A stretch of DNA of 64,000 bases, taken from the NCBI GenBank assembly GCA_045659905.1, contig JAZRCT010000020.1:194-64193 (forward strand), written 5' to 3'. The stretch comes from Eubacteriales bacterium (GTDB lineage: Bacteria; Bacillota; Clostridia; Oscillospirales; CAG-272). This document shows, piece by piece, positions 22,325-38,950 of this stretch. The notes beneath the pieces were generated by a model. The model was given only the letters and a program-made list of their open reading frames with translations, was not told the origin of the DNA and made no database searches. Each line of letters starts with the position of its first letter. Positions within the stretch are counted from its first letter, which is position 1. Position numbers and translations under genes: made by a program.

Positions 22325-23392
22325 ATGAAGAAAATAGCGTATATCGTTCTGGCTTCTATACTTCTTCTTATCGGCGCAAGCACTGCGTCGCATCTTATAG
22401 TGTTAAACAGTCAGGACGTCTATTTCGGCGTCGGCACTTACGCTTCTGCAAGCGACCTTGCGGCATCCGAGAGTGAAAAGGACGGAGTAGTACAGAAGAC
22501 CGACGGAAAAAGCGAGCTTGCTGTTACGGTAATGGCAATCACCGCAAATAGAGATGGCAAAATTCTCAAATGCGAAATAGACAGCGTCAGTGCGTCAATA
22601 GGCTATTCCGATTCCGGAGTGGTATCAGCCTCCCCGACGTATATGTCCAAGCGTGAGCTTGGCTACGATTACGGTATGTCAAAATACGGCATCTATTCCG
22701 ACTTTGACGGCGACGGCAGAGTGCTTGAATGGTTTGAGCAGGCAGACGCCTTTGAGAGCGTAGTAGAGGGCAAGGGGCTTGACGAGGTAGAGGCGCTTCT
22801 CGCTGAGGGCGGCAGAGGAAATAGCGAGCTTATCACGGCAGGCTGTACTATTGCCGTTTCGGACTTTATCCACGCATTCGACAGTGCACGCAAGAATCTT
22901 AAGCTTACCGAGGCTAAGACCGAGGACGAAATAGCTCTCGGTATATATACTGCAAGCGCAAAGCTTACCGACGCCACCGCCGAGGGGGGCGGCTCGGGCG
23001 AAATCAACGTTGCAATATTCGGTGCTACCGTGGATAATAGCGGTAAGGTTACCTCGGCTATGAGCGACGGCGTTGCTTATACCGCAGCGTTTGATAATAC
23101 CGGAAAGCCCGCTTCGGATTCCTCGGCTACTATAAAGTGTAAGAGAGAGCTTGGCTACGGCTACGGTATGTCGGTCTATGGCATTTATTCAGATTTGAAC
23201 GGTGACGGCGTGGTGCTTGAATGGTTTGAGCAGGCGGACGTCTTTGACAGCAAGGTCGTAGGTCTTACCGCCGCAGAGCTTCCCTCGCTCGTGCTTGATA
23301 CCGGCTACGGTAAGGATATCCTTACTACCGCAGGCTGCACTATTAACGTCAGCGATTTCGTAAAATCTGCGAATAAGGCTCTTGCCGATTAA
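22325..23392 (+). CDS. extracytoplasmic protein with two FMN_bind-like repeats (PplA-like candidate flavoprotein)
   Basis: N-terminal signal anchor. There is an internal duplication (aa about 64-190 and 226-355). Each repeat ends in TAGCT(I)xVSDF, aligned with the SGAT(x)TS motif of FMN_bind domains. It lies directly upstream of apbE. Confidence 0.6.
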   Translation: MKKIAYIVLASILLLIGASTASHLIVLNSQDVYFGVGTYASASDLAASESEKDGVVQKTDGKSELAVTVMAITANRDGKILKCEIDSVSASIGYSDSGVVSASPTYMSKRELGYDYGMSKYGIYSDFDGDGRVLEWFEQADAFESVVEGKGLDEVEALLAEGGRGNSELITAGCTIAVSDFIHAFDSARKNLKLTEAKTEDEIALGIYTASAKLTDATAEGGGSGEINVAIFGATVDNSGKVTSAMSDGVAYTAAFDNTGKPASDSSATIKCKRELGYGYGMSVYGIYSDLNGDGVVLEWFEQADVFDSKVVGLTAAELPSLVLDTGYGKDILTTAGCTINVSDFVKSANKALAD

Positions 23393-24944: not shown

Positions 24945-24973
24945 TTGACATTTATTTTAAATTATGTTATAAT
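24945..24973 (+). promoter_or_regulatory. sigma-A promoter of the carbohydrate cluster
   Basis: TTGACA-17 nt-TATAAT with a TGt extension. It lies inside the ORF-track N-terminal extension of the SBP gene. Confidence 0.65.
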
Positions 24974-25040
24974 TCTTTCCGTAAATTACCCGTGCTGTTT
25001 TATGTGCGGGAAAAGAATATATCTTGGAGGAAATCATTTC

Positions 25041-28000
25041 ATGAAAAAGTCAATGTTTCAGAGAGCTGTGTGTTTGCTTCTTTCTGTTGCGACTTTGTTC
25101 GGCTTGGTTGCGGTGACTGTGTTTGCGGGCGCTATTAAACCCGAATCCACCGCCGCAACTCTTGATGAGATGCAGAAGCTCGTCGGTACCACTACCTACG
25201 CTGAGTATCTCAAGACGATTCCCGACCCTGTCGGAGGGCTGTCGGTTATAAAGCTTGACAACTCTACCGCCATCGACGAGAAGAAGAATAAGCCTGACAA
25301 GGTTACGGAAAGTCCCGAATGCATAGAGTCGAAGCAGGAAAATCCCGGTGCGTGGGCAGAATACGGAGAGGGTCACGGTGACGCTCTTTACATTCCCGCC
25401 ACGGGTTCGGTTACCTGGAGCGTAGTAATCCCCGAAAATGCCGGCGGCAATTACTACATTAAGATAACTTACTTCAACTGCGAGACTTCCGAAAGCAGTA
25501 TCAGCTCGATTGAGCGTAAGCTCTACCTCGACGATTACATTCCGTTTGCAGAGGCAGGTCAGCTCAATCTCACGAAGTACTGGGAATACCCGACCTACGT
25601 TAAGACCGAGGTTAGCGATACAGACGAGCCTGACGGTGTGAGAGTAGAGTATCCCAGAGTTACGAGCGGTACGCTTGAGGAGAAGGGCTACTATAAGCAC
25701 GTAATCAGCGTCAAGGGCGGCAAGAAGACGGTTGATATATACAAAATCGAGGAAGATATCAACGGCAACTCGATGGCGCCCGATATTAAGCAGGTTTCCA
25801 AGTGGGGTGCTTACTACTGTCAGGATACCACGGGCTATTACAACGATTATTTCCGCTTCTATTTCCCTGCGGGTAACCGTACTATAACCCTTGCGGCAGA
25901 GCGTGAGCCCGTTATCATTGAATCGATAGAGCTCGTTCCCGTAGATTCGAATAAGTCCAATTCTACGACCTACGACGAATACATTGCGGCTCTTAAGAAG
26001 GGCGGAGCAAAAGCGCCCGTCGACGGTGGTGTTACGAGAATCGAGGCAGAGTTCCCCGATTTCGTTTCGGACTCGTCGGTTGCCGCAACCAACGACAACA
26101 CCTCTGCGATAAACTATCCTGCATTCTCCAACGCTCAGCTTTATAACGTAATAGGCGAGAATAGCTACAATACGGTAGGTCAGTGGGCGGCGTACAAATT
26201 CACCGTTTCCAAGGACGGTCTTTACAAGCTGGCTCTCAGATACAAGCAGGATGCGCTTCAGGGTATGTATATATGCCGTGCTATCAAGCTTTCGGGCGGT
26301 GCATACGGCGATACTCCCGCAGCTCCCTTTGCTGAGGCTTACAACTGCCAGTTTGACTACGACAAGGTGTGGCAGACCAACTACGTCGGCGATTACGTAT
26401 ATTACGGTGCAGACGGCAATCGCATAGATATCAGCTCGCTGAGACTCAACTCAGACGGTCAGTACGTCAACGCTGCCGACGAGGTGGTTGAGGTCAGAAG
26501 AGAAAAGAGAGATTTCGAATTCTACTTCGAGGAGGGCGAGGAGTACACGGTTTACCTTGAGTGCTCACTCGGTACTCTTAAGGAGTTAATCCAGAGAGTA
26601 GAAAATTCGCTTGACGAAATGAACGCCTGCTACTTAAGAATACTTCAGCTTACCGGTAACGACCCCGACGAATACCGTGACTACGGCTTTAAGGATATAA
26701 TGCCTGAGGTTTTAAGGTCGCTTCTCGAGCAGGCAATCGAGCTTGAGGCTGTTAAGCTTGAGTTCGAGGCGCTTTGCGGAACGACCGGCTCGCATATCAC
26801 GACGCTTCATACGATAGCGCTGCTTCTTGATAAGATGGGCGCTGAGAACGGCGACGAGATAGCTGCGAATATGACGACTCTTAAGTCTTACCTCGGTACT
26901 CTCGGTACTTGGATTAACAACTCCAAGAGAAGTGCTATGGTTGTGGACAGCATTTACGCAGCTCCCGCCGATTATGAAATCTGGCACGAGAGCTTGCCCA
27001 GAGCAGAAGCCAACTTCTTCGAGTCAATCGGATTTGAAATCAAGTCGTTCTTCTATTCGTTCTTTACCGAATACGACCGGATGGGACTTACCACCGTTCC
27101 CGACGAAAATACGAGAAATGTTGACGTATGGCTTGCAACAGGCCGTGACCAGTCGCAAATCTGGCGTACTATGATAGACGCTAAGGGAAGCTTCACCGAC
27201 ACCACGGGCGTAGCGGTTACGCTTAAGCTCGTTACGGGCGGTACGCTTCTTCCCTCGATACTTTCCGGCAAGGGTCCTGACGTTTATATAGGACTTGGCT
27301 CTACCGACGTTATCAACTATGCGATAAGAGAGGCTGTTTACGGCGTAAGCGGTAACGACTCTGCTCTTGACGCAAAGAAGGTTACGGTCGGCGACAATAA
27401 AGACTATTCTGCAAATGATATATTCACCTCCAATTTCTATACATACTGCGTAGAGCAGGGCGGCAAGAAGACCTACACCGTTTCTCCCGTATACAACGGC
27501 GCCGAGAATCTTACCAACACCTCTCTGACCTTTGAAGAGGTTATCGGTGACAATTTCGTTGAAGCCGCTATGGACACCGTAAGACTTGGAAGAACGGTCA
27601 ACGGCAAGTTTGCTGAAACGACCTACGGTATACCGCAGACGATGTCCTTTGCGATGATGTTCTACAGAATGGACGTTCTTGCGAACCTTGAGCAGGAGGT
27701 TCCCGACACCTGGTCGGAGCTTCTTTCGCTTCTTCCCGTTCTTCAGACCAACAATATGTCAGTAGGTGTTACCTACGGCGCTGCGCTCAACTTTATGATT
27801 TATCAGATGGGCGGCAATATGTGGAAATATCCCGAGGACCCCAAGTACGCAGGTATGCAGATACACCTTGATTCGGATATAGCTCTTGAAGCGTTCGACT
27901 ACGTATGCAGACTTTACAGTGACTATTCCTTCCCTGTAAGCTTTGATGCGGCTAACCGATTCAGAACGGGTGAAATGCCTATCATCATAGGCGATTATGC

Positions 28001-28568
28001 AGGTATCTACAACCAGCTCGTCGTTTATGCGACCGAGATTGCAGGTATGTGGGAATTTACCTCGCTTCCCGGCACGACCAACAAGGCTACCGGTGAATTT
28101 AATTACGATTCTCTTGCGGGAGTCGGAGCTACCGTTCTTCTTAACGGCTGTGACGATATCCTTGCTGCATGGCAGTTCATTCAGTGGCAGACGAGCGAGA
28201 AGGTTCAGTCCGATTACGGTAACAGAATGGTTGCTCTTATCGGTCCTTCGGCTAAATACGAGTCTGCAAACGTAAATGCGCTCAAGAATATGTCCTGGAC
28301 TGCAAGCGAATATGCGGCGATAGACCTTCAGATGAAGAATCTGTCATCTATCGTTAACTATCCCGGCTCTTACATAATAGGAAGATATACAGAGTTCGCA
28401 TTCCTCGCAGCGGTTAACGACGGTGCTGACGCTGTCGAGGCTCTTAGCGGATATATCGACGCTATCAACGATGAAATCGCTCGTAAGAGAGCGGAATTCA
28501 AGCTCCCCACCGAAATAGAGCAGGGCGACGTTCCTTATACGAATTGTCCCTGCTGTGTCTCGAAGTAA
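25041..28568 (+). CDS. very large extracellular solute-binding protein (two CBM-like beta-sandwich modules + helical region + family-1 SBP domain)
   Basis: GGAGGA RBS before the ATG at 25041. Signal peptide MKKSMFQRAVCLLLSVATLFGLVAVTVFAGA with no lipobox Cys. The C-terminal roughly 480 aa look like a sugar SBP (VDVWLATGRDQ..., GKGPDVYIG...). Confidence 0.8.
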   Translation: MKKSMFQRAVCLLLSVATLFGLVAVTVFAGAIKPESTAATLDEMQKLVGTTTYAEYLKTIPDPVGGLSVIKLDNSTAIDEKKNKPDKVTESPECIESKQENPGAWAEYGEGHGDALYIPATGSVTWSVVIPENAGGNYYIKITYFNCETSESSISSIERKLYLDDYIPFAEAGQLNLTKYWEYPTYVKTEVSDTDEPDGVRVEYPRVTSGTLEEKGYYKHVISVKGGKKTVDIYKIEEDINGNSMAPDIKQVSKWGAYYCQDTTGYYNDYFRFYFPAGNRTITLAAEREPVIIESIELVPVDSNKSNSTTYDEYIAALKKGGAKAPVDGGVTRIEAEFPDFVSDSSVAATNDNTSAINYPAFSNAQLYNVIGENSYNTVGQWAAYKFTVSKDGLYKLALRYKQDALQGMYICRAIKLSGGAYGDTPAAPFAEAYNCQFDYDKVWQTNYVGDYVYYGADGNRIDISSLRLNSDGQYVNAADEVVEVRREKRDFEFYFEEGEEYTVYLECSLGTLKELIQRVENSLDEMNACYLRILQLTGNDPDEYRDYGFKDIMPEVLRSLLEQAIELEAVKLEFEALCGTTGSHITTLHTIALLLDKMGAENGDEIAANMTTLKSYLGTLGTWINNSKRSAMVVDSIYAAPADYEIWHESLPRAEANFFESIGFEIKSFFYSFFTEYDRMGLTTVPDENTRNVDVWLATGRDQSQIWRTMIDAKGSFTDTTGVAVTLKLVTGGTLLPSILSGKGPDVYIGLGSTDVINYAIREAVYGVSGNDSALDAKKVTVGDNKDYSANDIFTSNFYTYCVEQGGKKTYTVSPVYNGAENLTNTSLTFEEVIGDNFVEAAMDTVRLGRTVNGKFAETTYGIPQTMSFAMMFYRMDVLANLEQEVPDTWSELLSLLPVLQTNNMSVGVTYGAALNFMIYQMGGNMWKYPEDPKYAGMQIHLDSDIALEAFDYVCRLYSDYSFPVSFDAANRFRTGEMPIIIGDYAGIYNQLVVYATEIAGMWEFTSLPGTTNKATGEFNYDSLAGVGATVLLNGCDDILAAWQFIQWQTSEKVQSDYGNRMVALIGPSAKYESANVNALKNMSWTASEYAAIDLQMKNLSSIVNYPGSYIIGRYTEFAFLAAVNDGADAVEALSGYIDAINDEIARKRAEFKLPTEIEQGDVPYTNCPCCVSK

Positions 28569-28591
28569 CAAAAGAGATAAGGAGATAAAAG

Positions 28592-29539
28592 ATGTCACAG
28601 ACTAAAGAAGCAAACCGTCCGGTAAAGCGTTCTGAGGTCTCGAAGCTGCGTTGGACGTGGCAGGAAATGAAGAATAATAAGACGGCATACTTTATGCTTG
28701 CGCCGTTCTTTCTCCTCTTTATTATATTTACAATCCTGCCCGTTCTGCTCTCGATGATTTTGAGCTTAACCGACTTTAATATGTTGCAGATGCCGCAATT
28801 CCTCGGAATCTCCAACTTTATCCGTCTGTTCCTTGAAGACGATATATTTCTTCTTGCGTGTCAGAATACGTTAATATTTGCTGCGATTACAGGACCAGTT
28901 TCCTATCTTATTTCGTTGCTTATTGCGTGGTTCATCAACGAGCTTCCCCCGAAGATACGTTCGGTTGTAACCCTCGTATTCTACGCCCCCTCGATTTCAG
29001 GACAGGTTTACCTTATATGGAAAACCCTCTTCTCCTCGGACTCCTACGGTTGGGCGAATGCAACCCTTATAGACCTTGGAATTATAAACGAGCCTATCCT
29101 GTGGTTCCAGAATGCCGATTACGTAATGCCGCTTTGTATAGTGGTAGCGCTTTGGACCTCGCTTGGTACTGCATTCCTTTCGTTTATTGCAGGATTCCAG
29201 ACAATAGACCGTTCTATGTACGAGGCGGCTGCCGTTGACGGTATTAAGAACCGTTGGCAGGAGCTTTGGTACATCACACTTCCTACGATGCGTCCTCAGC
29301 TTATGTTCGGTGCCGTTCTAGCTATTACCAACTCGTTCGGCTTCGGTGCGGTAGTTGATGCGCTCTGCGGATTCCCGTCGGTAGATTATGCGGCGCATAC
29401 GATAATGCACCATCTTAATGACTACGGCGGACAGAGATACGAAATCGGTTATGCATCGGCAATAGCCGTAGTACTTTTCGTAATAATGTTCTCGGCGAAC
29501 GTTATTATCAAGAAGGTACTTTCGAAGGTAGGTGAGTAA
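28592..29539 (+). CDS. carbohydrate ABC transporter permease (MalF/UgpA-like), pair 1
   Basis: 315 aa, EAA loop YEAAAVDGIKNRWQELWYITLP. Confidence 0.9.
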   Translation: MSQTKEANRPVKRSEVSKLRWTWQEMKNNKTAYFMLAPFFLLFIIFTILPVLLSMILSLTDFNMLQMPQFLGISNFIRLFLEDDIFLLACQNTLIFAAITGPVSYLISLLIAWFINELPPKIRSVVTLVFYAPSISGQVYLIWKTLFSSDSYGWANATLIDLGIINEPILWFQNADYVMPLCIVVALWTSLGTAFLSFIAGFQTIDRSMYEAAAVDGIKNRWQELWYITLPTMRPQLMFGAVLAITNSFGFGAVVDALCGFPSVDYAAHTIMHHLNDYGGQRYEIGYASAIAVVLFVIMFSANVIIKKVLSKVGE

Positions 29540-29541
29540 GT

Positions 29542-30417
29542 ATGTCCAAAAAGCTTAGAACAAGAGGCCACAGAGTCGTTCTCAACCGCTCTGCCGGCGG
29601 CGATGCGGGCATTACCGTTATGCTCACCCTTATGGGACTGTTTATGTTCATACCTATGTATTACGTAGTAATTCAGTCCTTAAAGCCCCTCGATGAGTTG
29701 TTTATGTTCCCCCCGAAATTTTACGTAATCAGCCCTACGCTTGATAACTTTGCCGACCTTTTCACTCTTATGAGTGACTCTTGGGTACCGTTCTCAAGAT
29801 ACATATTCAACACCGTGTTTATTACTATCTGCGGAACTCTTGGCAACCTTATATTTGCATCGATGGCTGCGTATTCGCTTGCGAAGCTTCGTTTCCCCGG
29901 AAGAAACGCAATCTTCCAGATAATCGTCGCATCGCTTATGTTCCATTCTACGGTAAACCAGGTAACCCACTTTATCATTCTTTCCGCATTCGGCTGGATT
30001 GATACCTACCTTTCTATTATAGTACCCTCAATGGCTACTACGATAGGACTTTACCTTATGAAGCAGTTTATGGAAACGTCCGTACCCGATACGGTGCTTG
30101 AATCGGCACGACTTGACGGTGCGAGCGAATTCAGAACCTATCTTACAATAGCAATGCCGATGGTTAAGCCTGCGTGGCTTACGCTTATCATCGAGTGCTT
30201 CAAATCCCTTTGGAACTCCGGCTCTTCAATTTACATTCACTCTGAGGAGCTTAAAACGTTCAACTACGCAATTCAGCAGATTGTATCGGGCGGTATAGCC
30301 CGTTCGGGTGCCGGAGCTGCGGCAACCGTTGTAATGATGCTCGTGCCTATCCTCGTATTCGTTCTTAACCAGAGCCAGATTATCGAGACGATGGGTTCGT
30401 CGGGTATGAAGGATTAA
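29542..30417 (+). CDS. carbohydrate ABC transporter permease (MalG/UgpE-like), pair 1
   Basis: 291 aa, EAA loop LESARLDGASEFRTYLTIAMP. Confidence 0.9.
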   Translation: MSKKLRTRGHRVVLNRSAGGDAGITVMLTLMGLFMFIPMYYVVIQSLKPLDELFMFPPKFYVISPTLDNFADLFTLMSDSWVPFSRYIFNTVFITICGTLGNLIFASMAAYSLAKLRFPGRNAIFQIIVASLMFHSTVNQVTHFIILSAFGWIDTYLSIIVPSMATTIGLYLMKQFMETSVPDTVLESARLDGASEFRTYLTIAMPMVKPAWLTLIIECFKSLWNSGSSIYIHSEELKTFNYAIQQIVSGGIARSGAGAAATVVMMLVPILVFVLNQSQIIETMGSSGMKD

Positions 30418-30429
30418 GGAGGACTAGAA

Positions 30430-32619
30430 ATGAAGAAGAAAATTTTCAAAGCCCTTATCCTTACTTTAGTGCTGGTTCTCATTTTCGGTGCGGTAAGCGC
30501 ATCGGCGTTCGAGTCGTACGACACGTATACCTACTCAATTGACGGCCAGCCCCTTAAATCTCCCTCGGCGTACGACGCCAGCCAGTTCTACAATTCCGCC
30601 TCGATGGGACTTCTTTCCGATAAGCTCGGAGCTACGGCGCTTTCGGGAGCAAGCGATATCGTTACGGACGACGCATCAAACGTCTATATTGCAGATACGG
30701 GCAACAACCGTATAGTAATTCTTAATAAGTATTATGCGGCAACGAATATTATCGATTCCTACACCGACGAGTACGGTAAGCTTCAGACCTTCAACAAGCC
30801 TCAGGGCGTTTTCGTAACCTCACCGGCAACAGGCTCGTCTGACAGCTTGGTTTACGTTTGCGATACGGAAAATTCGAGAATAGTAGTATTCGACAGAGAC
30901 TACAACTACGTAAGAACTCTCGATAAGCCCGAGAGTGCGCTTCTCCGTGACGATGCTTTCAAGCCTACTGCAATTGCGGTTGACCTTTACGGAAGACTTT
31001 TCGTAGTTTCTCCCGCTTGCTATGAGGGCGTAATAGTAATGTCTAAGGAAGGCGACTTCACAGGATTTATCGGCGCTCAGAGAGCAGAGTACAGCCTTAT
31101 AGACATTATCTGGAGAAGATTCCAGACCGATGAGCAGCGTGACAAGATTGAGCAGAACGTATCTATCGCTTATAATAATATAACGGTAGACAAGAGCGGC
31201 TTCGTTTACGTTACCACCGACGGTATCGAGAAGAATCTTCAGGTTGGCGCTATCAGGTCTAAGAATTCCGACTACTCGCCCGTTAAGAAGCTCAATTCGG
31301 CAGGCGACGAGATTATGAAGCGTAACGGCTTCTTTGATCCCGGCGGAGAGGTCAACGTTTCTACTATGTCTATTTCGAAGGGCCCGTCCAAGATTGTGGA
31401 CGTAGCAATAGGCTCTGAGAATTCCTGGTCAATCCTTGATAAGATGCGTTCAAGAATATTTACCTACGACCAGAACGGTAATTTGCTTTTCGCCTTCGGC
31501 GATATGGGTGACCAGCTTGGTAACGGCGAGGACCTCGTCGGAATGACCTATCACAACGTAGACGGCATCAATTACCTTATCACGCTTGACAATGCCAACG
31601 CAACAGCGGGTGGCTACAAGATTACGGTATATTCTCCCACGGAATATTGCGACGCTATAATGAGCGCTCTTCGCAATCAGAACGAGCACAAGTATTCCGA
31701 TGCAATACTTTACTGGCAGGAGGTTCTTACCAGAAACAATAACTTTGACCTAGCGTACATCGGTATCGGTAAGGCCCTTTACAATCAGGGCAAGTACGAG
31801 GAAGCTATGGAAATGCTTTCCGGCGCTTACGAAACCGCCAACTATTCAAAGGCGTTTGCCGCTGTCCGTAAGGATATAATCGGCTCTTGGGTGCTTATAG
31901 TAATAATAGTAGGTGCGATAGCGCTTTGCATAGGATTGGTTAAATTCTTCGGTTGGGCGAAGAAGAAGAACAAGATTACCGCACTTAAGGTCGGAAGAAA
32001 GTCCTACGTCGAGGAGCTTGTATTCGCATTCCACCTCTGGATGCATCCGTTCGACGGCTTCTGGGATTTGAAGCACGAAAAGAGAGGCTCTGTAAGAGGC
32101 GGAACGACCATTATGGCGGTTACGATTCTTGCATTCTTCTACCAGTCCATCGGTAGAGGCTACACCTTCAATCCCCGTGATAATTATTCTACGATTTTAG
32201 TTCAGATTCTTTCAATTTCGCTTCCCGTAATTCTCTGGTGCGTTGGCAACTGGTGTCTTACGACGCTCTTTGACGGCGAGGGAAGCTTCAAGGATATTTA
32301 CGTTGCGACGACCTATTCACTTACTCCCCTTCCTATCCTCGTCGTAATATCCACTATCCTTACTAACGTTCTTACCGCAAGCGAGGGCTCTATGGTAAGC
32401 CTTCTCGTAACCTTCGGATACATCTGGGTTGCTCTGCTTCTGTTCTTCGGAACTCTTGTAACTCACGATTATTCGCTCGGAAAGAACGTCCTTACGGTTC
32501 TCGGAACAATCGTTGCAATGGTAGTTATAATGTTCATTGCCGTTCTGTTCTCGAACCTTGTAATTAAGATGATAACCTTCATTTCCGCAATAATTACGGA
32601 AATAGGCAACCGACTATAG
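30430..32619 (+). CDS. NHL-repeat beta-propeller / TPR / Yip1-domain membrane protein
   Basis: Signal peptide. NHL-like repeats (VYIADTGNNRIVILN, VYVCDTENSRIVVFD, LFVVSP...). A TPR-like stretch (YIGIGKALYNQGKYEEAMEML). A C-terminal block of about 5 TM helices that looks Yip1-like. Confidence 0.75.
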   Translation: MKKKIFKALILTLVLVLIFGAVSASAFESYDTYTYSIDGQPLKSPSAYDASQFYNSASMGLLSDKLGATALSGASDIVTDDASNVYIADTGNNRIVILNKYYAATNIIDSYTDEYGKLQTFNKPQGVFVTSPATGSSDSLVYVCDTENSRIVVFDRDYNYVRTLDKPESALLRDDAFKPTAIAVDLYGRLFVVSPACYEGVIVMSKEGDFTGFIGAQRAEYSLIDIIWRRFQTDEQRDKIEQNVSIAYNNITVDKSGFVYVTTDGIEKNLQVGAIRSKNSDYSPVKKLNSAGDEIMKRNGFFDPGGEVNVSTMSISKGPSKIVDVAIGSENSWSILDKMRSRIFTYDQNGNLLFAFGDMGDQLGNGEDLVGMTYHNVDGINYLITLDNANATAGGYKITVYSPTEYCDAIMSALRNQNEHKYSDAILYWQEVLTRNNNFDLAYIGIGKALYNQGKYEEAMEMLSGAYETANYSKAFAAVRKDIIGSWVLIVIIVGAIALCIGLVKFFGWAKKKNKITALKVGRKSYVEELVFAFHLWMHPFDGFWDLKHEKRGSVRGGTTIMAVTILAFFYQSIGRGYTFNPRDNYSTILVQILSISLPVILWCVGNWCLTTLFDGEGSFKDIYVATTYSLTPLPILVVISTILTNVLTASEGSMVSLLVTFGYIWVALLLFFGTLVTHDYSLGKNVLTVLGTIVAMVVIMFIAVLFSNLVIKMITFISAIITEIGNRL

Positions 32620-32640
32620 TGAAAGCGGAGGTAAATAATT

Positions 32641-35600
32641 ATGAAAATTAAAAAGTTAATATCGTCTGCTTTGACTATCGTTTTGCTGCTCGGCGCAATT
32701 CTTGCGGTCGTTACCGTATCTGCAAGCGCCGTATGCGATTCGACGTCGGCGACGGCAAATCTTTCCTCGGAACAGATAAAGGAGGTAGTTAACGCCTCTC
32801 TTGATTATGAATTCGAGACGGCAGAGGAAATGCTCGCATACGAGCTTTCTCTCGGTTACCTTGATTCTATGACTACCGCTGATAAGAAATTCAGTATGTA
32901 TGTCAACCGATACACCGGCTTGTTCTACTACGTTAATAACGTTACAGGTCAGATTCTGACGAGTAACCCCTCAAACGTTAAGGAATTCAACAACGGCAGT
33001 GTTGCAAAGCTCCTTATGAGCCAGATATCAATCGAATATATCGTCAACGCTACCAATAAGGAGAATACCGACTTCAATTCCACCGAGTGGGCAGCTCTTT
33101 ACTCTCAGATAAATACGAGCTTTATCTCGAACGGAATCAGAGTCAATTACACCCTCGGTGATACCACTACGAGATTCCTCCTTCCGGGAAGGATTCTTGC
33201 GGAGGATTACGAGGAGCTTGTGATTAAGCCTATGCTTCTCAGATTCGAGACGCTGCTTGAGACTCATCTGCGCTCGCTCGTTGAAGGCAATCCTAATTTC
33301 TCATTCTTCAACAATAGCGATTATGAGCCATATGAGTATGACTGCATCAGCTCTAAGGAGTATAAGAGATATGTTAGCGATATGGTATCTCTTGCGGGCG
33401 ATTATTACGGCAGAAATTCGGCAGAGCTTAAGGAAATCAAATCGGTTCAGACAGATATTCTTGCATTCTCCACTATGTTTTCTCTCAAGAACCCCAAGCA
33501 GTATGAGGAGACCGGTAAGACCGACAGTGCGACCTACAAGAATATGATTAAGTTCTACTATACTCCTCAGGAGGGCGTATCCGCCAACCTTGATATTTAC
33601 AATTCAAGCTCGGATGGATACCACGCTCCTATGTACGTATTCAAGGAGAGCGCAGTTACTGCGGAGAAGAGAGCTAACGCTGCAAGATGGAGAAAATACT
33701 GCCCCTCTTACACGTTTTCTGAAATGTTCGCAAGCGAAAAGGAGTGCGGCTATGTTGACGATTCCGAGCAGAAGCCGGTATTCAGATGCTCTCTTGAGTA
33801 TTCGTTCAACGAGGACGGAACTCTTTCGGTTCGCCTTCCTTCGAACTCCATCACCTTTGATGAAACCGTATACAGCCTCAAGGAGATAAGGCCCATTCAG
33901 TTCTTCGGAGCGGGCAATGTCAAAAACGACGGCTATATCTTCTTCCCTGACGGAAGCGGTACGATTGTTGATTTCAACGATTTCAATGACTACACCTTCA
34001 CTACCGAGAGCGCAATATACGGCAACGATTACGCATATTCGGCTCTTAGCGACACCAGCGCACACAGAGAGCAGGTCACTATGCCCGTCTTTGGTGTTGT
34101 AAACAGCATAAAGGCAAACGCTCTTACAAGCTCCCGCTTCGGCACTGAGACCGTTACTAACGGTTACTTTGCGATTCTCGAGGAGGGCGCATCTCTCGCT
34201 AAGCTTGGTTATATGGGCGGCGGCTCTCATAGCTATGCGGGCGCATACAGCGTCTATACTCCGTATCCTATGGATACCTACGACCTCTCCGAGACCATCG
34301 GCGTTGGCGGCTCGGGTGCGTATACGATAGTAGCAGAAACCAGGTACAACGGCTCTTACGTTACCAAGATAGTAATGCTTACAGACGATACCGTGGGTAA
34401 GGAATGCTATGGCAACAACGCTTATTACAGCGCATCTTACGTAGGTATGGCGGCTTGCTACCGTGACTATCTTAAGGCTGGCGGATATCTCAGCGCTCTT
34501 GAAAATATCAGCAAAGACCTTCCTCTTTATATAGAGGCTCTCGGCGCTATGGATATTACCACCAAAATCCTTTCGTTCCCTGTAACGCAGACTATTCCGC
34601 TTACTTCGTTTGACGACGTCCTTACTATGTATAATGAGATTTCCAATAATAAGGACACCTTCTTGAAGAAGGCAGAAGAATATGAAGCACTCGCTTTGGA
34701 GGTCAGCGAAACCTCTCTTAAGGAAAGCTACCTTAAGACCGCAGAGGGCTACCGTGCAATGGCAGAAACCGCAAAGAGCATTGAAAATATCAATTTCAGG
34801 CTTACAGGCTTCGCCAACGGCGGTATGCACTTCACCTATCCTGCTAAGGTAAGATGGGAAAGAGCCTGCGGCGGTAAGGATGCATTTGACAATCTTCTCA
34901 ACGAAGCAAAGAAGCTTTCTGACGAGGGCAAAAATCTTGGTATATACCCTGATTTTGATTTTATTTACATCAACAATACCGAGCTGTTCGACGGCGTTTC
35001 CAACAACAAGAACGTTTCGAGAATGGTTGATAACCGTTTCGCTTCCAAGCAGGAATACGATGCGGTGCTTCAGGAATACGTAACCTACTACACGCTCGTA
35101 GTAAATCCCGCTACCTTCGAGGAGCTTTACGGCAAATTCCTCAGAAAGTATTCGGCTCACGCTGCGACGGGAATTTCGGTTTCCACAATGGGCTCCGACC
35201 TTAACTCAAACTTTGACGAGGAGGACCTCACTAACAGAAGCGAGGCAGAGGCTTACGTTACCTCAATCCTTGCCAAGATGAAGAACGAGCAGGGCTACGA
35301 GATAATGGTAGATAAGGGTAATTCCTACACCTATAAGTACGTAAGACATATAATAGGTGCGGCTACCGATTCGAGCCATTACAGATATTCGTCTTACGCA
35401 GTTCCTTTCCTTGGAATGGTGCTTCACGGCTACGTAAATTATACCGGCGATGCGCTTAACTATGCAGGTACACCTCAGTATTACATTCTTCGTGCGATAG
35501 AGAATGGCGCAGCTCCTTACTACGTGCTCTGCTATCAGAACACCGGAAATCTTAAGGACGACGTTCTTCTCAGCAAGTACTACGGCGTTGATTACAACAC

Positions 35601-36270
35601 CTGGTTTGATTCTATCGTCACTACCTACGGCGAGCTTAACGCTGCAATAGGCGGACTTCAGAAGTACAACATCACAGACCACAAGATTATTCTCGGTGAG
35701 CGTGCGGTAGACGAGAACGAGCAGAATGCAAATTACGCAGCGCTTAAGGCAGAAATTATTGCTATGCTTGACGCTCAGATTGCTGAGGCTGTAAGAGTTG
35801 GCTACGAGTATCTTCAGAATAATGAAGCAAGCTCGGGAAGACCCCTTGCAGTATCGATAGATACAGACGCACTTATCGCTCAGTTCTGCGATATCCTTAA
35901 TCTTACCGCAGAGGAGCTTGTAGGCACGGCGGAGAAGCCCACTGCCTTCAAGACCGAAGTCGATGGTGTTGTAGCTAAGTATGAAGCTGAGTATCCTTCG
36001 GGTGGCACTAATCCTTACGTAGTAAGCTTTAGCGCCATTGAGTACGAGTCGCAGTATTCCTACATCACCGAGTCCTTGGCTACCGACGGTAAGAATTACG
36101 TTTATACCGACTACACCAGCGATATAAACAATATCGCAATGGTAACCTACTCGAATGGCACGGATAGCGTGACGTTTATTCTCAACTACAATATTTACTC
36201 CGTTACCGTTAAACTCGGCGATGGAGAAACCTACACAATCGGCAAGTACGATTATGTAAAAATAGACTAA
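32641..36270 (+). CDS. 1209-aa membrane-anchored extracellular protein, DUF5696-like (putative glycan-processing enzyme)
   Basis: N-terminal signal anchor. The DUF5696 assignment is from memory of similarly organised clusters and is not verified here. Confidence 0.6.
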   Translation: MKIKKLISSALTIVLLLGAILAVVTVSASAVCDSTSATANLSSEQIKEVVNASLDYEFETAEEMLAYELSLGYLDSMTTADKKFSMYVNRYTGLFYYVNNVTGQILTSNPSNVKEFNNGSVAKLLMSQISIEYIVNATNKENTDFNSTEWAALYSQINTSFISNGIRVNYTLGDTTTRFLLPGRILAEDYEELVIKPMLLRFETLLETHLRSLVEGNPNFSFFNNSDYEPYEYDCISSKEYKRYVSDMVSLAGDYYGRNSAELKEIKSVQTDILAFSTMFSLKNPKQYEETGKTDSATYKNMIKFYYTPQEGVSANLDIYNSSSDGYHAPMYVFKESAVTAEKRANAARWRKYCPSYTFSEMFASEKECGYVDDSEQKPVFRCSLEYSFNEDGTLSVRLPSNSITFDETVYSLKEIRPIQFFGAGNVKNDGYIFFPDGSGTIVDFNDFNDYTFTTESAIYGNDYAYSALSDTSAHREQVTMPVFGVVNSIKANALTSSRFGTETVTNGYFAILEEGASLAKLGYMGGGSHSYAGAYSVYTPYPMDTYDLSETIGVGGSGAYTIVAETRYNGSYVTKIVMLTDDTVGKECYGNNAYYSASYVGMAACYRDYLKAGGYLSALENISKDLPLYIEALGAMDITTKILSFPVTQTIPLTSFDDVLTMYNEISNNKDTFLKKAEEYEALALEVSETSLKESYLKTAEGYRAMAETAKSIENINFRLTGFANGGMHFTYPAKVRWERACGGKDAFDNLLNEAKKLSDEGKNLGIYPDFDFIYINNTELFDGVSNNKNVSRMVDNRFASKQEYDAVLQEYVTYYTLVVNPATFEELYGKFLRKYSAHAATGISVSTMGSDLNSNFDEEDLTNRSEAEAYVTSILAKMKNEQGYEIMVDKGNSYTYKYVRHIIGAATDSSHYRYSSYAVPFLGMVLHGYVNYTGDALNYAGTPQYYILRAIENGAAPYYVLCYQNTGNLKDDVLLSKYYGVDYNTWFDSIVTTYGELNAAIGGLQKYNITDHKIILGERAVDENEQNANYAALKAEIIAMLDAQIAEAVRVGYEYLQNNEASSGRPLAVSIDTDALIAQFCDILNLTAEELVGTAEKPTAFKTEVDGVVAKYEAEYPSGGTNPYVVSFSAIEYESQYSYITESLATDGKNYVYTDYTSDINNIAMVTYSNGTDSVTFILNYNIYSVTVKLGDGETYTIGKYDYVKID

Positions 36271-36288
36271 GAAGGAGGTAAATGAAAG

Positions 36289-37338
36289 ATGGATGAAAAC
36301 GTTGTTATGACCGAAGAAGCTGTTATGGCTGAAGCCGACGTTGCGAATGAAAATGGCGTAACGCCTGCCGACCTTGGCGGCTCTGCGGTAATAAATCCCG
36401 GCACGGGACTTCTCAGAACCCGTCGCAAAAAGGTTTCTCTTGATTCAAGAAAAGCGCGTGCAGGCTACATATTCACGCTGCCCTTTATTCTTGGTGTTCT
36501 TCTTATTTACCTTCCTATACTGCTCGACTCTGTTTGGTTCTCTCTCGGTAGAATAGACCCCGTCAACGTAGACGGCGTCCCCGGATTTGTAACCACCTGG
36601 GTTGGACTTGATAACTATATCAAGTCGATTACCGACGACGCAGGCTTCGTACAGAGCCTGCTCTCGGGAGTCCAGCAGCTTATATTTGAAGTGCCTGCGG
36701 TAATTATCTTCTCACTCTTTATAGCAGTAGTTCTTAACCAGAAAATGCTTGGTAGAGCAGTATTCCGTGCAATCTTCTTCGTTCCCGTTATTATATCTAC
36801 GGGACTTATGGAATCAATCAATGCGTCCGATATAGTCTCGGATTCCGCAGGCGGAATCAACGACGGCTCGGGCAGCAGCGCAGGCGGTATAGTATCTACG
36901 CTTGAAATCGAGCGCCTTTTCGCGACGATGCAGATAGGCGGCGAGCTTGTTACCTACGTCGTAGACCTCGTTAATAAGATTTACGATATTATCAACTACT
37001 CGGGCGTTCAGATGCTTATCTTCCTTGCAGGACTTCAGTCGATATCTCCCGCTATCTACGAGGCTTGTCAGATAGAGGGTGCTACCGGCTGGGAAACCTT
37101 CTGGAAGATTACCTTCCCGATGATTTCTCCTATGATTCTCGTAAATGCGGTATATACCGTTATCGACTCGTTTACAAGAGCTGAGAATATAACAATGAAG
37201 TATATCTCCGGTGTTTATATCCGGAGCCCCGAAATATCAACTGCAATGGCTTGGATTTACTTCCTCGTCGTCGTGCTTATCATAGCTGCGGTTGCGGGTA
37301 TAGCTTCAACGTTCATCTTCTATCAGAGGAAGGATTAA
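36289..37338 (+). CDS. carbohydrate ABC transporter permease, pair 2 (acidic N-terminal extension)
   Basis: 349 aa, EAA loop YEACQIEGATGWETFWKITFP. Confidence 0.85.
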   Translation: MDENVVMTEEAVMAEADVANENGVTPADLGGSAVINPGTGLLRTRRKKVSLDSRKARAGYIFTLPFILGVLLIYLPILLDSVWFSLGRIDPVNVDGVPGFVTTWVGLDNYIKSITDDAGFVQSLLSGVQQLIFEVPAVIIFSLFIAVVLNQKMLGRAVFRAIFFVPVIISTGLMESINASDIVSDSAGGINDGSGSSAGGIVSTLEIERLFATMQIGGELVTYVVDLVNKIYDIINYSGVQMLIFLAGLQSISPAIYEACQIEGATGWETFWKITFPMISPMILVNAVYTVIDSFTRAENITMKYISGVYIRSPEISTAMAWIYFLVVVLIIAAVAGIASTFIFYQRKD

Positions 37339-37351
37339 GGAGGTGGATGAT

Positions 37352-38401
37352 ATGAGTAAACAGATTGTTAAAGAAACAAAGAATAAAATCAGAGTTGACT
37401 ACGAGGGCAAGCTTTCGCTTAAAGAAAGATTCTTAAGCAAAGCAAAGACCTTTAATACCTGGATTAAGGTAGTAGTAAATATCTTCCGCTTTGTTCTTAT
37501 GATTGGCGTATCCTACGTTATCCTTTATCCCTTCTTTGCGAGAATCGCAGGCTCCTTTATGACGAGACAGGACGTTCTTGATGCTACGGTTTCGCTTATA
37601 CCGAAGAATTTTACTCTTGAAATATATAAGTATATTATCGTAGAGAATAATTACTTCGATGCGCTCTGGCACACGATACTTATCTCGCTTCTTTGCGCAC
37701 TTGCACAGACTCTCGTGGCTTGTCTTATCGGCTACGGACTTGCAAAGTTCAAGTTCAAGGGTAATAAGCTTATAATGGGCGTGGTTGTCTTCACGATGAT
37801 TATTCCTCATAAGACGCTCCGTCTTGCAATAGTAAAGCATTTCACGATGTTCGACTTTATGACGGTTCAGTCCTGGAATATGAAGGGAATTATCGAGCTG
37901 CTTACGGGCGATACAATCGAGCTTGTTAACAGTGCGTGGCCGTTGGCTATCCTCTCAATCTTCGGACTTGCGTTTAAGAACGGACTGTATATATACCTTA
38001 TGCGTCAGTTCTTCAAGGGCGTCCCCGATGAGCTTGAGGAGAGTGCATACGTTGACGGCTCGGGCGTGTACCGTACCTTCTTCCAGATAATCCTTCCGCT
38101 TTCAATCCCGATGATGATTACTATATTCCTGTTCTCGTTCTCATGGCAGTGGACCGACGAATTCTACACTACGCTGTTCTGGGACGATAACGTGAATAAG
38201 TTCTATCTGATGCCGGATATCTATAAGACCATACCTGAGACCTTGGCGCAAAGGTACGAGGATCTTGCAGGTTGGGCAGTGTATAAGAACGTAGTTCAGA
38301 ATACTGCGGCAATGCTTATCATTCTTCCGCTGGTAATTATGTACTTGTTCTGCCAGAGATATCTCGTTCAGGGAATTGAGCGTTCGGGTATTGTTGGATA
38401 A
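37352..38401 (+). CDS. carbohydrate ABC transporter permease, pair 2
   Basis: EAA loop EESAYVDGSGVYRTFFQIILP. AAGGAGG RBS 8 nt before the ATG at 37352. The ORF-track GTG at 37343 lies inside the RBS. Confidence 0.85.
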   Translation: MSKQIVKETKNKIRVDYEGKLSLKERFLSKAKTFNTWIKVVVNIFRFVLMIGVSYVILYPFFARIAGSFMTRQDVLDATVSLIPKNFTLEIYKYIIVENNYFDALWHTILISLLCALAQTLVACLIGYGLAKFKFKGNKLIMGVVVFTMIIPHKTLRLAIVKHFTMFDFMTVQSWNMKGIIELLTGDTIELVNSAWPLAILSIFGLAFKNGLYIYLMRQFFKGVPDELEESAYVDGSGVYRTFFQIILPLSIPMMITIFLFSFSWQWTDEFYTTLFWDDNVNKFYLMPDIYKTIPETLAQRYEDLAGWAVYKNVVQNTAAMLIILPLVIMYLFCQRYLVQGIERSGIVG

Positions 38402-38518: not shown

Positions 38519-38572
38519 AAGAGAGAGTAAATCGGTTTAATTGATTTTAAGCCGAAATGCTCTCTCTTTTTT
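38519..38572 (+). terminator. long-hairpin terminator, copy 1 of a repeated element
   Basis: AAGAGAGAG ... CTCTCTCTT outer stem with an inner TCGGTTTA/TAAGCCGA stem, then TTTTTT. About 85% identical to 43795-43846. Confidence 0.6.
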
Positions 38573-38785: not shown

Positions 38786-38814
38786 TTGACAAAAGGATAG
38801 GGAAAGTTTATAAT
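38786..38814 (+). promoter_or_regulatory. sigma-A promoter of livJHMGF
   Basis: TTGACA-17 nt-TATAAT, a perfect consensus. Confidence 0.65.
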
Positions 38815-38826
38815 ATATCCATACTT

Positions 38827-38910
38827 AAAAAAAGCAATTTGCCGAGTGTTTCTCAGAGTATGAGATTTAAAATCACACACCCTTGGCGACGCTCGGCAGA
38901 TTGCTTTTTT
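38827..38910 (+). promoter_or_regulatory. leader terminator/attenuator upstream of livJ
   Basis: 13-bp stem GCAATTTGCCGAG (38834-38846) / CTCGGCAGATTGC (38892-38904) enclosing a 45-nt interior that has its own small hairpin. It is followed by TTTTTT. It lies between the promoter and the livJ RBS. Confidence 0.5.
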
Positions 38911-38950
38911 GGGAAATATTTTACCTGAATAAGGTACAAGGAGAAAGAAA

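Follow-up and report, generated by a model that had tools for sequence, protein, structure and literature searches.

What does a bacterium take up, or process, with a gene cluster that encodes one giant solute-binding protein (SBP), two pairs of ATP-binding cassette (ABC) permeases, an NHL-TPR-Yip1 membrane protein and a large DUF5696 protein, and that contains no ATPase? This question is raised by seven plus-strand open reading frames (ORFs) at positions 25041-38401 of a 64,000-nt stretch of contig JAZRCT010000020.1 (GCA_045659905.1) from a Eubacteriales bacterium of the CAG-272 lineage. The whole stretch is referred to here as the window. A first-pass annotation of this DNA had described the seven genes as a carbohydrate-type ABC cluster, and had proposed that the co-occurrence of the SBP, Yip1 and DUF5696 genes be checked in other genomes.

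Our data indicate that these genes are kept together, in one order, in Clostridia and Bacilli. The carbohydrate-type assignment stood up, since both permease pairs are of the MalF/MalG type and the SBP contains a MalE-like fold, as in carbohydrate uptake transporter 1 (CUT1) systems. With somewhat better than even confidence, we consider the seven genes to be one functional unit, namely an ancient glycan-uptake cassette of Bacillota, of the CUT1 ABC type, in its stand-alone form.

Conservation of the seven-gene cassette

We found that the order SBP-P1-P2-NHL/Yip1-DUF5696-P3-P4, where P1 to P4 are the four permeases, is kept in 83 of 83 loci of the window clade as far as the contigs reach (59 are complete). 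The same order is present in all 80 further metagenome loci, which carry intermediate forms (34 complete), giving 163 loci without exception. DUF5696 homologues at 38-60% identity come only from metagenome-assembled genomes (MAGs) of uncultured gut Clostridia/Eubacteriales. At approximately 25% DUF5696 identity, tblastn against plasmids recovered the same order in Butyrivibrio fibrisolvens and Paenibacillus cellulosilyticus. A search seeded with the Butyrivibrio protein added loci of identical layout in Acetatifactor, Roseburia, a further Lachnospiraceae-like contig, P. alkalitolerans, P. catalpae, Cohnella nanjingensis and a metagenome contig. Every component is orthologous one to one in these distant loci, at 24-57% identity. 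The outcome of the proposed neighbourhood check is therefore strongly positive: order is kept in every related locus examined, across Clostridia and Bacilli, and no locus that we examined carries a DUF5696 gene without both permease pairs, the giant SBP and NHL/Yip1. The family itself is large, with 6669 clusters at 50% identity and lengths of 830-1870 aa in a profile search.

The components differ in how strongly they are conserved. In Lachnospiraceae and most Paenibacillaceae, identity to the window is highest for P1 (54-57%) and P2 (52-57%), followed by P3 (37-43%), P4 (35-42%), Yip1 (35-40%), NHL (30-33%), the SBP (approximately 29% over its full length) and DUF5696 (24-26%). The P. cellulosilyticus locus shows lower identity for most components, including 43% for P1, while P1 is 81-96% identical across the window clade. 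Between most Bacilli loci and Clostridia, P1 and P2 are still 52-57% identical. Across 17 loci, the median identity is 86% for P1 and 92% for P2, compared to 65 and 57% for the branched-chain amino-acid permeases LivH and LivM and 79 and 81% for LivG and LivF in the same loci. By these comparisons, the P1P2 pair is abnormally conserved, far beyond expectation for such permeases.

One locus (L031, CAVEOF010000005.1) is labelled Coriobacteriaceae. Its cassette and its liv synteny are those of the Clostridia MAGs, and its SBP and P1 are 55 and 86% identical to those of the window; mis-binning or mislabelling of the contig is the probable explanation.

Architecture of the SBP, permeases and Yip1 protein

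The features of the cluster are collected in Table 1. The first-pass annotation had named the 1175-aa protein an SBP, which its AlphaFold model (predicted local distance difference test, pLDDT, 80) bears out. In the model, beta-sandwiches at residues approximately 116-300 and 332-509 and a four-helix bundle (511-630) are followed by a MalE-like SBP fold (632-1152), so that by fold the protein is a binding protein of the SBP_bac_1/8 type found in CUT1 importers. By Foldseek, the C-terminal approximately 520 aa resemble sugar SBPs (E approximately 1e-13, TM-score 0.7-0.79), among them binders of sophoro-oligosaccharide, lacto-N-tetraose and maltodextrin. At the sequence level there are weak matches to GanS and Lin1841; the window protein has no Pfam match of its own, and close homologues carry PF13416 or PF01547. 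The beta-sandwich region of giant SBPs yields only sub-threshold hints of CBM_35, Golvesin_C and PA14 (CBM_35 and Golvesin_C in relatives). Full-length homologues of the giant SBP are present in all distant loci. A lipobox is missing from the window protein and from all nine relatives inspected, and is present in nine of ten neighbouring ordinary SBPs.

Both permease pairs are ordered UgpA/MalF-like, then UgpE/MalG-like, and we could read EAA-x3-G-x9-I-x-LP-type loops in all four proteins, in agreement with the intact EAA loops reported earlier. The combination of MalF-like and MalG-like subunits that characterizes CUT1 importers is thus present twice, as P1/P2 and as P3/P4. Pfam and NCBIfam supply the family matches; the NCBIfam scan of the cluster gave generic permease matches only, and P2 falls just below the Pfam threshold for BPD_transp_1 (25.1 bits, cut-off 26.4). 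Hydropathy indicates that P3 has an N-terminal extension and a loop of approximately 100 aa between transmembrane (TM) helices.

The 729-aa protein, previously described as an NHL-TPR-Yip1 membrane protein, belongs to the Yip1 family (PF04893, 53.6 bits compared to a cut-off of 28.6, E 3e-14, residues 535-703), and hydropathy agrees with this assignment. Its NHL and TPR regions are sub-threshold in Pfam and were identified through sequence matches in the PDB, to the PknD and "Pizza" NHL propellers and to a consensus TPR. Since the TM helix at 483-501 and the five-TM Yip1 domain follow them, the propeller and the TPR should be extracellular. NHL and Yip1 are fused in 64 of 64 metagenome loci in which this can be judged. 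In relatives embedded in polysaccharide loci (see below) they are instead encoded by two translationally overlapping genes, with the NHL protein ending in a TM anchor of its own.

The SBP, DUF5696 and Yip1 proteins each begin with a hydrophobic segment that ends in an AxA-type signal-peptidase site, and further TM helices are found only in the Yip1 protein. The giant SBP is accordingly either secreted or retained through its N-terminus, and the DUF5696 protein is extracellular. The earlier description of the DUF5696 protein as anchored is therefore unproven.

Table 1. Predicted features of the seven-gene cluster (positions in the window)
Feature	Position	Strand	Characteristics
Sigma-70-type promoter (predicted)	24945..24973	+	TTGACA-17 nt-TATAAT with TG extension, 12/12 consensus
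Giant SBP, 1175 aa	25041..28568	+	N-terminal hydrophobic segment with VFA/G cleavage site; non-lipoprotein
Permease P1, 315 aa, MalF/UgpA-type	28592..29539	+	EAA loop YEAAAVDG...ITLP; BPD_transp_1 E 1e-12; NCBIfam UgpA best
Permease P2, 291 aa, MalG/UgpE-type	29542..30417	+	EAA loop LESARLDG...IAMP; NCBIfam UgpE E 2e-23
NHL-TPR-Yip1 protein, 729 aa, candidate membrane scaffold	30430..32619	+	Signal peptide; NHL propeller ~55-400; TPR ~419-470; TM helix 483-501; five-TM Yip1 domain 535-712
DUF5696 protein, 1209 aa	32641..36270	+	Hydrophobic N-terminus with SASA/V cleavage site; Pfam PF18952 E 1e-116
Permease P3, 349 aa, MalF/UgpA-type	36289..37338	+	EAA loop YEACQIEG...ITFP; BPD_transp_1 E 3.5e-10; NCBIfam UgpA
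Permease P4, 352 aa, MalG-type	37343..38401	+	GTG start as listed; EAA loop EESAYVDG...IILP; BPD_transp_1 E 1.6e-13; NCBIfam MalG E 1.6e-18
Intrinsic terminator	38519..38572	+	Long hairpin 38519-38567, then UUUUUU; free energy -29.7 kcal/mol, z -7.4

The DUF5696 protein resembles glycoside hydrolases in fold

The 1209-aa protein had been called DUF5696-like and is a true member of that family: it scores 391 bits against PF18952 (cut-off 25.6), and 28 of 28 aligned homologues match the same profile. Its AlphaFold model (pLDDT 84, predicted TM-score 0.77) consists of an N-terminal extension, a beta-sandwich, a (beta/alpha)8 barrel with a coiled-coil insertion, a helical extension and a C-terminal beta-sandwich. 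The succession of N-terminal beta-sandwich and (beta/alpha)8 barrel is that of the fold of glycoside hydrolase (GH) family 129. Indeed, Foldseek aligned the model with GH129 structures (5opq/8rzk, E 4.5e-20, probability 1.0, TM-score 0.67 on the target; 5wzp, E 5e-17), with the GH31 enzyme YihQ (5aee, E 8e-10) and, weakly, with GH13. Searches at the level of sequence gave a different picture. Neither phmmer nor a 28-sequence profile linked DUF5696 to any PDB chain, GH129 5opq and 5wzp included, relaxed Pfam scans of the 28 members returned no GH family, and hhalign with Escherichia coli YihQ was negative. Since all of these searches were negative, catalytic residues cannot be mapped by alignment. 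We considered filing DUF5696 under GH129 and rejected this, because the sequence similarity on which CAZy families are defined is absent and the likeness is one of fold only. The earlier statement that the cluster holds no recognisable CAZy-type motif thus stands for sequence, where no Pfam or PDB link to a GH family exists, but not for fold, which is GH129/GH31-like. Furthermore, no assignment to a known CAZy family in a published locus emerged, and in this respect the proposal of an uncharacterised system survives.

We identified candidate residues from a 93-sequence alignment and the model. D437 (within PDGSG), D463, E514 and E954 are conserved in all DUF5696 forms. The short forms, which are those embedded in polysaccharide loci, also conserve D857 (98%) and D918 (95%). 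By our reading of the strand order in the model, D857 would follow barrel strand 4 and D918 strand 6, which would place them at the positions of the GH31 nucleophile and acid/base; by inference only, they are our candidate catalytic residues. Stand-alone forms combine S/T918 with D/E910 and retain D857 ("LNSDFD"). N857 ("LNSNFD", 100%) is confined to the window clade, which also has S918, with D859 and D910 at 97%. We consider it about equally likely that the catalytic acids of the window-clade protein have migrated and that it binds without cleaving.

A 518-aa antisense ORF (33604-35160, minus strand) was rejected as a gene because it lies wholly within the conserved DUF5696 frame; it is probably a by-product of sense-frame codon usage.

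Locus-embedded and stand-alone cassettes

We found that the cassette occurs in two genomic settings. In eight Lachnospiraceae/Paenibacillaceae loci it is flanked by genes of GH43, GH53, GH35/GH42, GH26 or GH113, in four kinds of locus: GH43 with a histidine kinase; GH53 with LacI; GH43 with GH35, GH42 and LacI; and GH26 and/or GH113 with LacI. All eight have lipoprotein SBPs nearby, one or two extra per locus. In seven of the eight, a regulator is visible within the 10-kb flank: LacI, or else a histidine kinase, which in Butyrivibrio is accompanied by a response regulator. These loci thus combine enzyme, transporter and regulator as expected of a polysaccharide-utilisation locus; in the window locus, only the transporter is present. 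Judged by their hydrolase families, the embedded relatives sit in mannan and (arabino)galactan loci. The earlier remark that the cluster has no assigned substrate therefore holds as far as the literature goes, but the loci of its relatives give it a substrate context. Because the embedded relatives hold extra lipoprotein SBPs, the suggested sharing of one SBP by both translocons is not a trait of the family. Since P1P2 is extremely conserved and the giant SBP is conserved over its whole length across loci for differing polysaccharides, our comparison suggests that P1P2 and the giant SBP act independently of the substrate. It may be P3P4, the ordinary SBPs and the hydrolases that set specificity.

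The stand-alone cassettes have a fused NHL-TPR-Yip1 gene and a longer SBP and DUF5696 protein. They comprise the window clade, P. cellulosilyticus (L085), two further loci (L094 and L095) and the 80 metagenome loci, an assignment for which the panel of seeds was limited and the Pfam sample small, so that hydrolases of unknown families in the flanks would be missed. The fully annotated flanks of L085, L094, L095 and three loci of the window clade (L001-L003) contain no hydrolase and no LacI or two-component regulator. In L095 the cassette is immediately preceded by a divergently transcribed ROK-family gene, whose product could be a sugar kinase or act in regulation. For the 80 metagenome loci we used a panel of seeds that covered nine hydrolase families, LacI, a histidine kinase, ordinary SBPs and the ATPase UgpC; apart from ABC ATPases, considered below, it returned only two weak SBP-like matches (L144 and L147, 22-23% identity). 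Ten same-strand neighbours sampled from these loci with Pfam are housekeeping genes such as MnmA, radical SAM, VanY and helicase genes, with one exception, and MetRS, SmpB, HtpG and SpoIIE are further housekeeping neighbours in the annotated flanks. The exception is the next gene downstream in L161 (15224-18568), whose 1115-aa product is a phosphodiester glycosidase of the NAGPA family that also has a dockerin and a galactose-binding-like domain. This neighbour may be there by chance, or may hint at a phosphodiester-linked glycan as substrate.

Downstream of the P. cellulosilyticus cassette (L085, 15943-25166) we noted a run of four LLM-class flavin oxidoreductases, interleaved with two additional SBPs and an NADPH oxidoreductase, a neighbourhood that is unusual for a sugar transporter.

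Transcription signals, ATPases and genomic surroundings

The layout of the window cluster agrees with the first-pass annotation, which had reported a consensus promoter at 24945, seven tightly packed genes, a terminator at 38519, and no ATPase, second SBP or regulator among the genes. The intergenic gaps are 23, 2, 12, 21, 18 and 4 nt, and from this spacing we infer that the seven genes are co-transcribed. Perfect TTGACA-17-TATAAT sites occur only twice in 18 kb, at 24945 and at 38786, where the second serves the next operon; in the same scan, the frequency of weaker promoter-like sites does not exceed that in shuffled sequence. The mechanical start of the first ORF, a TTG at 24945, falls inside the promoter, and the ATG at 25041, preceded by GGAGG, is the likely start of the 1175-aa protein. 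None of 200 shuffled sequences folds as well as the terminator hairpin, which a simple scan overlooks because its stem is GC-poor. We found no cre-like site at the 24945 promoter, and no Rfam family or tRNA anywhere in the window. Since the promoter matches the consensus and the cluster has no regulator, the unit of the window clade probably works constitutively, as a core system that takes up a glycan constantly available in the gut.

Firmicutes often share one orphan MsmK/MsmX-type ATPase among several importers. The only ABC ATPases in the window are of the OppDF and LivGF types, and a UgpC probe found no MalK/MsmK/UgpC-type subunit there. A UgpC/MsmX-type gene lies directly upstream of the P. 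cellulosilyticus cassette; none lies within 10 kb of the cassette in 93 other loci, and the scan of the 80 metagenome loci gave only 26-29% matches to other ABC ATPases. The local absence of an ATPase, together with the UgpC-type gene adjoining one relative, fits a shared orphan ATPase.

The cluster is preceded by an Rnf operon with ApbE and followed by a LivKHMGF operon with its own perfect promoter, and housekeeping genes make up the rest of the window (S2/EF-Ts, Opp, a shikimate operon). A 355-aa ORF (22325-23392) with no Pfam match separates the Rnf genes from ApbE, and a similar unannotated gene precedes ApbE in L001. The second perfect promoter (38786-38814) is followed by a 136-nt leader before livK (38951). 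This leader contains a long hairpin and U-tract (about 38824-38912, free energy -46.6 kcal/mol, z -7.0) with no Rfam match, suggestive of an attenuator or terminator in front of the branched-chain amino-acid transporter genes. Further downstream, a 1597-aa ORF (52472-57265) has MBG_3 as its sole domain match, plus a spurious-looking ribosomal L27A match at its end, and probably encodes a large surface protein.

A model of cassette function and its alternatives

We hypothesize that the seven proteins divide the work of glycan uptake. The giant SBP would capture an extracellular oligo- or polysaccharide through its beta-sandwiches and binding cleft and would dock on the highly conserved P1P2. 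The NHL-TPR-Yip1 protein might serve as a membrane scaffold that keeps the DUF5696 protein and the SBP, which has no lipid anchor, at the translocons, as YknW does for the pump YknXYZ. The DUF5696 protein, whose gene immediately precedes P3P4 and so takes the "receptor position", would trim or merely bind the glycan and hand it to P3P4, and both translocons would be powered by an MsmK/UgpC-type ATPase encoded elsewhere. Gene order, the NHL-Yip1 fusion, the missing lipid anchors and the precedent of YknW suggest this division of labour. A bolder version, which we regard as unlikely, is a novel ABC importer assembly of Gram-positive bacteria, in which the scaffold joins two translocons of which one is served by a giant SBP carrying carbohydrate-binding modules and the other, in place of an SBP, by a glycosidase-derived protein. 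In the window clade, where the putative nucleophile of this protein is Asn (N857), it would be a pure glycan receptor, and the assembly would be a functional Firmicute counterpart of the SusCD capture and import machines of Bacteroidetes. Replacement of the nucleophile Asp by Asn is a laboratory means of trapping Michaelis complexes of GH129 enzymes.

Several observations weigh against the uptake model. The two acids conserved in embedded forms are N and S in the window protein, so "trimming" may not apply there. No hydrolase, regulator or ordinary SBP neighbours the cassette in the window clade, so that its carbohydrate context has to come from relatives that are 24-57% identical. The giant SBP and P1P2 appear much too conserved across loci for differing polysaccharides to determine specificity, which is awkward for the idea that the SBP captures the substrate. 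No partner ATPase is seen for this organism within 64 kb, and the physical interactions are deduced from gene order and a single gene fusion.

Alternatively, the stand-alone class, the window included, may be a housekeeping envelope system and not a nutrient-uptake locus, for instance one that salvages or processes the cell's own surface glycans or a ubiquitous host glycan. A consensus promoter in the absence of a regulator, hydrolase or extra SBP would suit such a system, as would its neighbours in several lineages (Rnf/ApbE, liv, MnmA, MetRS, SmpB, HtpG, SpoIIE), its presence in all related genome fragments of sufficient length, the conservation of P1 and P2 above LivH/M and even LivG/F, and the remodelled putative active-site residues of DUF5696. 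However, all components are orthologous to those of cassettes beside mannanases and galactanases, no cell-wall or exopolysaccharide genes are consistently adjacent, and to our knowledge type I MalFG-type permeases are importers only. We give this explanation a minor share of our confidence. The extreme conservation of P1P2, whatever polysaccharide the surrounding locus handles, the whole-length conservation of the giant SBP and the obligatory extracellular partners could also point to an ABC module that acts as a motor, instead of or besides a channel. By analogy with FtsEX and MacB, ATP-driven movements of P1P2 would then be transmitted to DUF5696, NHL-Yip1 and the giant SBP, so that an external polymer is pulled or processed. 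We consider this very improbable, since we know of mechanotransmission in type VII ABC systems but not in MalFG-type importers.

The simplest alternative is that two ordinary, independent sugar importers, one without its SBP, became adjacent by chance, along with two unrelated surface-protein genes. Either permease pair alone does resemble a normal CUT1 pair, and the lipoprotein SBPs of the embedded relatives could serve one pair independently. An invariant order in 163 related and nine distant loci, in Bacilli and Clostridia, is hard to reconcile with chance, as are gaps of 2-23 nt and the fact that DUF5696 was never seen without both pairs, the giant SBP and NHL/Yip1. This explanation is very unlikely.

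Comparison with known systems

The SusCD systems of Bacteroidetes are far better understood than the uptake of large plant and host glycans by Gram-positive gut bacteria. Both gut and soil Firmicutes commonly carry the cassette: cultured members of Roseburia, Butyrivibrio, Paenibacillus and Cohnella have it in mannan/galactan loci, and large uncultured gut clades have the stand-alone form. If the seven proteins do form one machine, the textbook ABC importer with one SBP and one pair of transmembrane domains needs extension, a large family of unknown function would gain a role, and thousands of genomes would be better annotated. Testable handles are the cultured hosts, whose substrates are known, the candidate catalytic residues and the natural Asp-to-Asn variant. 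A literature search found no paper naming DUF5696 or PF18952, and queries on Yip1 with SBP, on NHL with ABC and polysaccharide-utilisation loci, and on GH129 with DUF and ABC gave nothing relevant to such a cassette. The parts are of known kinds (ABC importer, glycosidase fold, Yip1 accessory protein), and their combination and its breadth appear to be undescribed.

The short-form relatives resemble the Gram-positive polysaccharide-utilisation loci of Roseburia and Eubacterium rectale, in that they would be the transporters of mannan (GH26, GH113) and galactan/arabinogalactan (GH53, GH43, GH35, GH42) loci. Unlike these, the window locus has no sequence-recognisable hydrolase, regulator or ordinary SBP and lies between housekeeping operons. 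In its modelled beta-sandwich and (beta/alpha)8 barrel, the DUF5696 protein is like GH129 enzymes (the alpha-N-acetylgalactosaminidase NagBb of Bifidobacterium bifidum and the 3,6-anhydro-D-galactosidase of Zobellia) and GH31 enzymes. It differs from them in having no detectable sequence similarity, large insertions, export, a place in an ABC operon and, in the window clade, Asn and Ser at the two best candidate acid positions.

YknW, a Yip1-family protein, is an assembly factor of the Bacillus ABC transporter YknWXYZ (PMC4887032). The Yip1-domain protein of the cassette likewise has its gene among those of an ABC transporter, to which it presumably binds. However, YknYZ is a MacB-like exporter with a membrane-fusion protein, whereas the cassette has importer-type permeases and its Yip1 domain bears a large extracellular NHL propeller and TPR.

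The closest likeness in permeases and SBP fold is to CUT1 importers whose ATPase is supplied in trans, such as E. coli MalEFGK2, Bacillus subtilis GanSPQ and AraNPQ with MsmX, and the streptococcal MsmK systems. The cassette shares with them MalF/MalG-like pairs with EAA loops, a MalE-like fold and an operon without an ATPase, as is usual in Firmicutes, and one relative is adjoined by an ATPase of their UgpC/MsmX type. It differs in holding two permease pairs per operon and two further obligatory genes (NHL-Yip1 and DUF5696), in a non-lipoprotein SBP of approximately 2.5 times the usual size, its binding fold being preceded by two beta-sandwiches and a helical bundle, and in a P1P2 pair that is conserved far beyond the norm.

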